From the NCBI RefSeq assembly GCF_009834535.1, contig NC_045696.1, positions 66,404,001 through 66,468,000 of the forward strand: DNA of 64,000 bases. Direction: 5' to 3'. This document shows, in pieces, positions 37,471-38,384 of the stretch. The translations under genes and the position numbers were made by a program. The stretch comes from Camelus ferus. Its lineage: Eukaryota. Under the pieces are notes generated by a model that saw nothing but the letters and a program-made list of their open reading frames with translations, was not told where the DNA came from and did no database searches. How positions within the stretch are numbered: position 1 is the stretch's first letter; every line of letters starts with the position of its first letter.

Positions 37471-38384
37471 TGAGGGAGCGCAAACTTGGGTTAACCAATT
37501 TTGATATTGTAATGATTGCTTTTACCAAATCATGTTCTCATCTTTATGTAGTCTCACCTTTATGTAAGCACATAAGAAATGTATAATCAAAACCAATGCT
37601 TTCCTATATTTGTCTTTATACTTCTACTTCAAAGCAAAAATCTGATCTCTCAATACCAGTCACACCTTGTCAATGGAACTTAGCTTAGCTGCCTTAAAGT
37701 TACTTCTCCTCGCCGTAAAAAGCAAAGACATGCTTTGCTTGCTTTCCTTGCTTTGCTTAGTTCGAGGTCATAGATTCAGGGCTGCTTGTGCTTACGGAAA
37801 ACCATAACTTGTCCCTTTCCCTAAATGGCAGGACGTGCTTCCCTCATCAGGCGCAGGTGGATGGTGTGGGCTGCTCTTGCTCACAGATGACTGTGACTTA
37901 GCCCTCAGCTGGGGACAGCTGGGCTGCTTTGCATGCTTAGACAATTTCTGATCATTGTATGGAGACTGTGGTGGTCTGGTTTTCATTATCAATTGTTGGG
38001 AACTCTATAACATTGCTCATGATTGTTGGAGGTTTAAATCAACCATTTGTGCTATCAATTGTATACTCCCTGTAAGAGTATAATTTTTCTATTTTTCAAG
38101 AACTGAAACTACTGACCTACATCTCTTACATACACCATGCCCCTTACTCGTTCTTATGATGTCTTTTACTTTGATTCTTTGTTTAACCATCCTCAATAAA
38201 TACAGGAGCTTTGGAGGAGCTCAAGGAGTTGGTCTCTGGCTCCCTCTCACTCTCTTGACTTGATAAAGTCTTGAGTAATTTTGTTCTGCCACAGTGGGAC
38301 TTTTGCTGGACAAAACCCACAATGAACAGAACCCGCAACTGGTGATCCCGATGTGATCACCACCCACGGCGATGAGAACCCACA
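37471..38384 (+). mobile_element. Class II-like ERV remnant: LTR plus tRNA-Trp PBS plus duplicated LTR terminus
   Basis: TG...CA ends, perfect 6-bp TSD GGTTCT (37465-70 and 38385-90), AATAAA at 38195, PBS at 38340-57 two bases after a CA LTR end. Confidence 0.85.
38340..38357 (+). other. Retroviral primer-binding site complementary to tRNA-Trp
   Basis: TGGTGATCCCGATGTGAT versus TGGTGACCCCGACGTGAT (reverse complement of tRNA-Trp 3' 18 nt); 16/18, both differences C>T. Confidence 0.85.

Follow-up and report, generated by a model that had tools for sequence, protein, structure and literature searches.

A probable solo LTR from a tRNA-Trp-primed endogenous retrovirus family, likely of class II, in Camelus ferus, with a primer site retained inside the insertion

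Alpharetroviruses, whose hosts are avian, carry an 18-nt tRNA-Trp primer binding site two nucleotides past the terminal CA of the LTR, as in the ALV/RSV group and EAV-like loci collected here (L001–L009 and L078). Among mammals, ERV-Hako is a group II endogenous retrovirus (ERV) family of simian primates with a target-site duplication (TSD) of 5–6 bp, a tRNA-Trp primer and a 401-bp LTR (Frith 2025, PMC11905727). A tRNA-Trp-primed class II ERV in a mammal thus has published precedent, and the family described below is possibly already catalogued. An earlier note on this DNA had proposed a possibly poorly described family of this kind; the tRNA-Trp-primed family stands, but its kind has already been described in ERV-Hako (PMC11905727). 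The same note had listed HERV-W as tRNA-Trp-primed; Frith 2025 reports that HERV-W used tRNA-Arg. For camelids, a dromedary survey by homology reported no ERVK (PMC6675863), and 410–679 ERV2 elements per camelid genome are given, without primer typing, in the excerpted text of PMC8605555. Our literature search, with most subscription journals outside its scope, found neither a camelid tRNA-Trp-primed ERV nor a natural ERV with tandem U5-end/primer units. If the present family is class II, camelids would represent a second mammalian order with tRNA-Trp-primed class II ERVs after primate Hako. The question of whether mammalian Trp priming goes back to a single lineage linked to birds or to repeated switches would be affected, and the thin record of camelid class II ERVs would be extended.

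Here we describe an insertion at positions 37471–38384 of a 64,000-nucleotide stretch of Camelus ferus DNA (the window, meaning the whole of the sequence analysed), which we take to be a solo LTR from an ERV family that is tRNA-Trp-primed and probably class II, and whose unusual features are a retained primer site and a doubled LTR end. Its features, in window coordinates, are as follows.

37465–37470, + strand: left TSD, GGTTCT, identical to 38385–38390
37471–38337, + strand: standard family LTR, TG...CA, with a U3 that varies among copies (from read-contig depth, loose ends and joints)
38195–38201, + strand: AATAAAT, candidate TATA-like box or poly(A) signal (role presumed from usual LTR layout)
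38262–38267, + strand: GATAAA, other candidate poly(A) signal (role presumed likewise)
38283–38332, + strand: predicted U5 stem-loop (from folding of 38240–38384)
38311–38337, + strand: U5 end, first copy, the standard integrase end (19/27 in register with 38358–38384)
38338–38339, + strand: spacer AC, two bases separating the LTR end from the primer site
38340–38357, + strand: tRNA-Trp primer binding site, 16/18, within the insertion
38358–38384, + strand: U5 end, second, diverged copy, its terminal CA forming the true right end of the insertion
38385–38390, + strand: right TSD, GGTTCT
38391–38830 (end approximate), − strand: older repeat of the host that the insertion interrupts, with its first bases at about 37455–37470

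The earlier note had reported an LTR with a 6-bp TSD, and both are real, but the TSD bounds the 914-bp unit 37471–38384, which runs from TG to CA, and not the 867-bp family LTR (TGAGGG...CCCGCA, 37471–38337). The right copy of GGTTCT starts 47 bp past the standard LTR end; among flank lengths of 3–11 only length 6 agrees, and the right flank directly after 38337 matches the left flank at none of these lengths. At window frequencies, CA followed by GGTTCT would arise by chance inside 60 positions with a probability of about 0.002. Since GGTTCT follows 38384 and not 38337, the primer site and 27 more bases sit within the TSD-bounded unit, a layout different from that of an ordinary solo LTR, in which the TSD abuts the standard LTR and the primer site is lost. 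The flanks join into one older repeat, which we take to resemble an MLT2-type ERVL LTR, both this name and the end point being approximate. L1-mediated insertion was ruled out by the TG and CA ends, the short TSD and the lack of poly(A); the locus contains no gene and bears no sign of function.

The wider family was assessed from contigs of 4 of 24 sequencing runs, aligned to the window at 85% likeness and including two DNA runs (X1 and X15); 16 runs under one organism label, from six studies, contain 0.68–0.72 of the window's words. In each DNA run the left junction is crossed by one contig with one difference (at depths of 11.6 and 8.4), which shows that both contain the insertion, and no empty-site joint was found among the joints listed for either. 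A 335-bp contig under a second organism label matches 37463–37794 with five gaps and, having no substitutions, represents the same locus. At the LTR start (37468–37513) depth rises from single-copy to about 90–106 times that of the flank, and summed R-U5 depth reaches 179 and 200 times the flank in the two DNA runs, which would put the family very roughly at 100–200 copies, summed depth not being copy number. Past 38341 depth falls to 5.2% and 2.9% respectively, and loose ends at 38319 and 38334, among those listed, mark copies terminating at the first LTR end; from this fall and these ends it follows that the 867-bp LTR is the standard form and that most copies end at 38337. Eleven joints record other family copies that skip 58–655 nt within the LTR (37597–38217), and LTR depth comes near single copy at 37606–37651 and 38066–38111. 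From these joints and depth dips we infer that U3 has several length variants or subfamilies. In X1, 328 of 468 pieces are 85–95% alike, suggesting a family that is not very young, perhaps roughly 10–30 million years old on an assumed neutral rate; a very young, LTR-only family seen at low coverage was ruled out, given that the left flank is at single-copy depth and the pieces are mostly 85–95% alike. In the RNA run 13 reads aligned, none of them 99% alike. Pattern searches returned no match for the junction of LTR end and primer site in metagenome contigs, none for the post-primer stretch in genome contigs, and none for the LTR start in viral or genome contigs; the sole viral match to the primer-end motif, L086, lies in a phage-like contig rich in GC and looks fortuitous.

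The sequence TGGTGATCCCGATGTGAT lies at 38340–38357, two bases (AC) past the LTR end at 38337, and agrees at 16 of 18 positions with the Trp primer site, which is exact in all nine viral loci from a degenerate-pattern search; by their Gag starts we take these nine to be avian leukosis/sarcoma-type viruses. It is the sole match at three or fewer mismatches in the window, and no such match arose in 100 shuffles. Contigs of other copies show C at 38346 (67.6 of a depth of 80.1 in X1, 24.7 of 35.5 in X15) and C at 38352 (66.9 of 80.1 and 27.6 of 35.5), and the unequal residual depths at the two positions indicate that the window locus's own contig is absent from these figures. By depth arithmetic, the exact tRNA-Trp site is present in three of the five other contigs in X1 and in one of three in X15, and those without it have one differing position apiece. 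Nine X1 contigs cross 38335 and five of these extend to 38346; the four that fall short may be solo ends, contig breaks or copies with other primer sites. Two propositions of the earlier note are borne out by these contigs. The element is a multi-copy ERV LTR, as high summed depth across many contigs attests, and its tRNA-Trp primer site is real; the exact Trp 18-mer is present in other copies, and Trp priming, as read from contig sequence, is a trait of the family. Where betaretroviruses have a tRNA-Lys site, a Trp site is found here and in other copies. The 18-mer of HERV-W type quoted in the literature is a different sequence from that at 38340–38357, and the class I traits of HERV-W (a 4-bp TSD and a primer site that is Arg by GtRNAdb) are absent, the TSD being 6 bp. 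Placed as it is between two versions of the U5 end, the primer site is probably not the one that defines the right end of the insertion, and the locus cautions that finding a primer site next to an LTR is no proof of a provirus, or of the primer really used.

The 27 nt at 38358–38384 take up all the space from the primer site to the right end of the insertion and are identical to the U5 end at 38311–38337 at 19 of 27 positions without gaps. This is the top 27-mer match on both strands of the window (the runner-up has 17), and 19 was reached in 10 of 200,000 shuffles. In the same register the likeness stops upstream of the 27 nt, so that U5 end, spacer and primer site make up a unit of 47 bp that is bounded by the primer site's 3′ end. 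Both copies terminate in a CA of integrase type; other family copies carry A at 38335 (158.8 of a depth of 158.8), and with this base the last 10 nt of the two U5 ends are alike. Pieces of other copies extend exactly to 38384 in both DNA runs (from-end values 39 and 33, calibrated on the row at 37145), and the 27 bases after the primer site are therefore family sequence. A fresh duplication at the window locus was accordingly excluded, the copies differing at 8 of 27 positions and the second being common to other loci. Read-through of the tRNA beyond 18 nt was likewise discarded as a source of the 27 nt, which have no likeness to the continuation of tRNA-Trp.

Contig record 8 (4840 bp, single-copy depth 12.5) aligns to 38235–38379 with 20 differences in 145, the alignment ending 5 nt before 38384, and then continues unbranched for 4695 nt. 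Proviral interiors shared at 85–90% identity would be expected to have 5–18 identical 31-mer runs per pair; a shared interior should therefore break up, and the unbranched course of record 8 makes unique flank likelier. Record 8 thus has the look of another long-form LTR set in unique flank, and it seems to share the non-CpG T of the window locus at 38346 (80.1 − 67.6 = 12.5).

Folding suggests a possible other role for the second U5-like stretch. The segment 38240–38384 has a predicted energy of −43.2 kcal/mol (z −4.34, with one of 200 shuffles equally good), and in the predicted hairpin the first eight bases of the primer site pair with 38355–38362 (P about 1). Predicted pairing with the 5′ arm of U5 amounts to −15.7 kcal/mol for the second copy against −16.5 for the first, values equalled by 103 and 12 of 2000 shuffles respectively. 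On this model 38358–38384 could be a U5-leader pairing partner instead of a duplicate.

Of 82 unrelated Trp sites, two are followed by a repeat of the LTR end (L036, 19/20; L058, 15/20) and the other 80 are not, so that the layout is recurrent yet uncommon. On the minus strand of L036, at about 1010–1080, the repeated end lies 6 nt past an exact Trp site, and a possible remnant of a second primer site lies beyond it. Separately, in L046, L058, L061 and L074 the bases after the Trp site are like the continuation of tRNA-Trp beyond 18 nt, and they resemble the product of primer read-through or extended pairing.

The ungapped repeat begins at the primer site's 3′ edge, the point at which plus-strand strong-stop DNA ends. 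We consider the chances even that the 914-bp unit is explained by two tandem U5-end/primer units, priming from the downstream one, and later solo-LTR recombination. An ancestor of the family would have duplicated a 47-nt unit consisting of the last 27 nt of U5, the 2-nt spacer and the 18-nt primer site, giving an RNA of the form R-U5-PBS1-U5′-PBS2-leader. Priming at PBS1 would yield the common 867-bp LTR, and priming at PBS2 would copy PBS1 and U5′ into both LTRs, which would then measure 914 bp and terminate at the second CA. This second CA end would have been used by integrase, with the 6-bp TSD as the result, and recombination between the LTRs would afterwards have left a solo LTR with PBS1 retained inside. 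The existence of PBS2, priming from it and the solo-LTR recombination, together with membership of class II, are what we infer. The T that record 8 appears to carry at 38346 would be expected if PBS1 were inherited without correction by the tRNA. We tentatively extend the account to a camelid class II lineage with Trp priming and a tandem pair of primer sites, both with a functional integrase end in front of them; with the same reserve, and as part of the same reading, this lineage may have acquired Trp priming on its own or together with primate Hako. Were this so, a single RNA would have given rise to LTRs of both lengths, and the numbers of 867-bp and 914-bp solo LTRs relative to each other would preserve, as a fossil count, the choice of primer site in the germ line.

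A natural counterpart would then exist to engineered vectors with two primer sites. Voronin and Pathak in 2004 reportedly dealt, to judge from their title, with retroviral vectors that have two primer-binding sites and frequent initiation at both; initiation at both sites is the step needed here, and the difference is that those were engineered HIV vectors. The paper on two sites in Gypsy (PMC1635307) concerns, in its excerpted text, 5′ and 3′ sites, a layout unlike that of the window element, and the excerpted text of PMC8931336 has no bearing on this layout.

Several observations bear on the choice between two tandem primer sites and readings that need one. The start of the repeat right where the primer site ends, its ungapped fit to the whole 27 nt, the integrase-type CA of both copies with the A that other copies carry at 38335, the pieces of other copies that extend to 38384, the second apparent long-form LTR in record 8, the predicted pairing of the 5′ half of PBS1 and the recurrence of the layout in L036 and L058 all speak for two sites. 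On the other side, the 3–5% of depth that persists past the LTR end is also expected from the 5′ LTRs of ordinary proviruses, the alignment of record 8 stops before 38384, 38358–38384 pairs with the U5 arm nearly as well as the first copy does, and the repeat is missing from nearly all of the 82 unrelated Trp sites; moreover, none of the 11 joints returns from 38384 to a primer site, the shortest listed side being 22 nt, so that a match of 18–20 nt would perhaps be undetectable. It is conceivable, if somewhat doubtful, that a normal provirus with one primer site collapsed when a U5-like stretch of its leader recombined with the last 10–23 nt of the 3′ LTR; on this account the interior and nearly the whole 3′ LTR would have been lost, and the 5′ LTR, primer site, a hybrid end and the TSD would remain. 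Such a collapse requires no second primer site and fits the residual depth just mentioned as that of proviral 5′ LTRs; the homology would come from the leader stretch, whose last 10 nt agree with the end of the family LTR, and the predicted leader-U5 pairing could account for the likeness of the stretch. However, 867 bp of LTR-LTR homology should, we reason, far outcompete 10–23 nt, record 8 as an apparent second case would require the same rare event twice, and nothing in this account explains why the repeat begins exactly where the primer site ends. Quite improbable, in our view, is a third account with a single primer site, in which integrase occasionally treated the U5-like stretch of an aberrant reverse-transcription product as a cryptic end, so that LTR, primer site and 27 nt alone were inserted. 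The clean 6-bp TSD at a CA that mimics a normal end agrees with it, but it requires a DNA end 2 nt past that CA without a primer to create such an end, and no result supports an aberrant product.

The element has the tRNA-Trp primer and the 5–6 bp TSD of ERV-Hako, and shares with ERV-Hako and HakoP, as mammalian group II families, these same two traits; Hako is known from tens of LTRs and fewer interiors (PMC11905727). It differs in an LTR of 867 against 401 bp and in the order of its host, the two having been compared by description alone, and the Hako section of PMC11905727 reports neither an internal primer site nor a doubling of the U5 end. In alpharetroviruses the primer site lies at about 315–366 in four loci (L002–L004 and L007), so their LTRs are much shorter; blastn against ALV, RSV and EAV found no LTR similarity (best E 1.3), with matches at E 0.01 to the primer site alone. 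A generic scan for CA-NN-Trp gave 76 loci (L010–L085), none with LTR similarity outside the primer site. Five of them, the beta-like ERVs L017, L034, L039, L059 and L082, also carry a Trp site past CA-NN, exact in four and with one mismatch in L017, and differ in having no LTR similarity to the window element at E 0.01. As an observation in their own right, these five are non-alpha retroviral elements with Trp sites, probably in avian DNA to judge from the inferred host; the Pol of L039 and L082 is 34–37% like ALV Pol, and in L039 a single open frame extends over 1408 codons and the Pol is beta-like. The best matches of the L039 Pol are 7SR6 and 5CZ2/3JCA, which we take to be HERV-K reverse transcriptase and MMTV integrase. 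The betaretroviruses MMTV, JSRV, MPMV, HERV-K and bat beta-ERVs would share class II with the family if the TSD inference holds, and differ from it in using lysine tRNAs in place of tRNA-Trp (excerpted text of PMC3621094); the 867-bp LTR falls between the values for type D (300–500 bp) and type B (1265 bp) given there.

We place the family in class II with good confidence, on the strength of one 6-bp TSD, the company in which Trp sites are found, and the look of the LTR ends. The TSD has the length of 5–6 bp characteristic of class II, at one locus, and the TG-x-GGGAGC start and CCCGCA end of the LTR are, we assume, like those of class II LTRs; a TG...CA LTR in multiple copies with a primer site 2 nt later is also present, a feature that does not separate ERV classes. 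No retroviral coding sequence was found in the window by tblastn with Gag, Pol and Env frames, none of 108 ORFs matched Pfam (six of the 114, in a simple repeat, were excluded), and no interior linked to the LTR was found in viral, metagenome or genome contigs. That the family belongs instead with gamma-like, delta-like or still other ERVs, and that its 6-bp TSD misleads, is unlikely; this question stands on a separate axis from that of mechanism. The TSD is known from a single locus; TSD length is no strict classifier, for bat betaretrovirus TSDs are given as four-nucleotide repeats in the excerpted text of PMC3621094, and primer use is called unstable for classification in that of PMC4724089. 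Against a placement outside class II, all six group I families in Table 1 of Frith 2025 (PMC11905727) have a 4-bp TSD and the sole group II family in that table has a TSD of 5–6 bp and tRNA-Trp, and exact Trp sites occur in alpharetroviruses and in L039 with its beta-like Pol.

The window contains further repeats. A second solo LTR at 47364–47858 (495 bp, TG...CA, AATAAA near its 3′ end) has a 4-bp TSD matching at 3 of 4 positions (ATGA/ATGG) and is class I-like by TSD length; it sits within an older LTR-like repeat, which has an exact 30-bp tandem duplication at 47260–47320. Three tRNA-Ala-like SINEs, presumably camelid Vic-1, occur at 41065–41140 (−), 28621–28728 (+) and 8404–8523 (−), of which the first was called as tRNA-Ala by ARAGORN and Rfam and was reassigned as a SINE by its A-rich tail and two relatives. 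The SINEBase entry gives vic-1 as a simple SINE of camels (PMC3531059). Elsewhere there are a GC-rich 14-bp tandem repeat of 4.1 copies at 51264–51320, in the most GC-rich kilobase of the window, an (AAGA)n-type microsatellite of about 59 units at 34945–35230, and, at 20730–20918 and 54657–54842, inverted copies of a dispersed repeat that are 71% alike over 189 nt.
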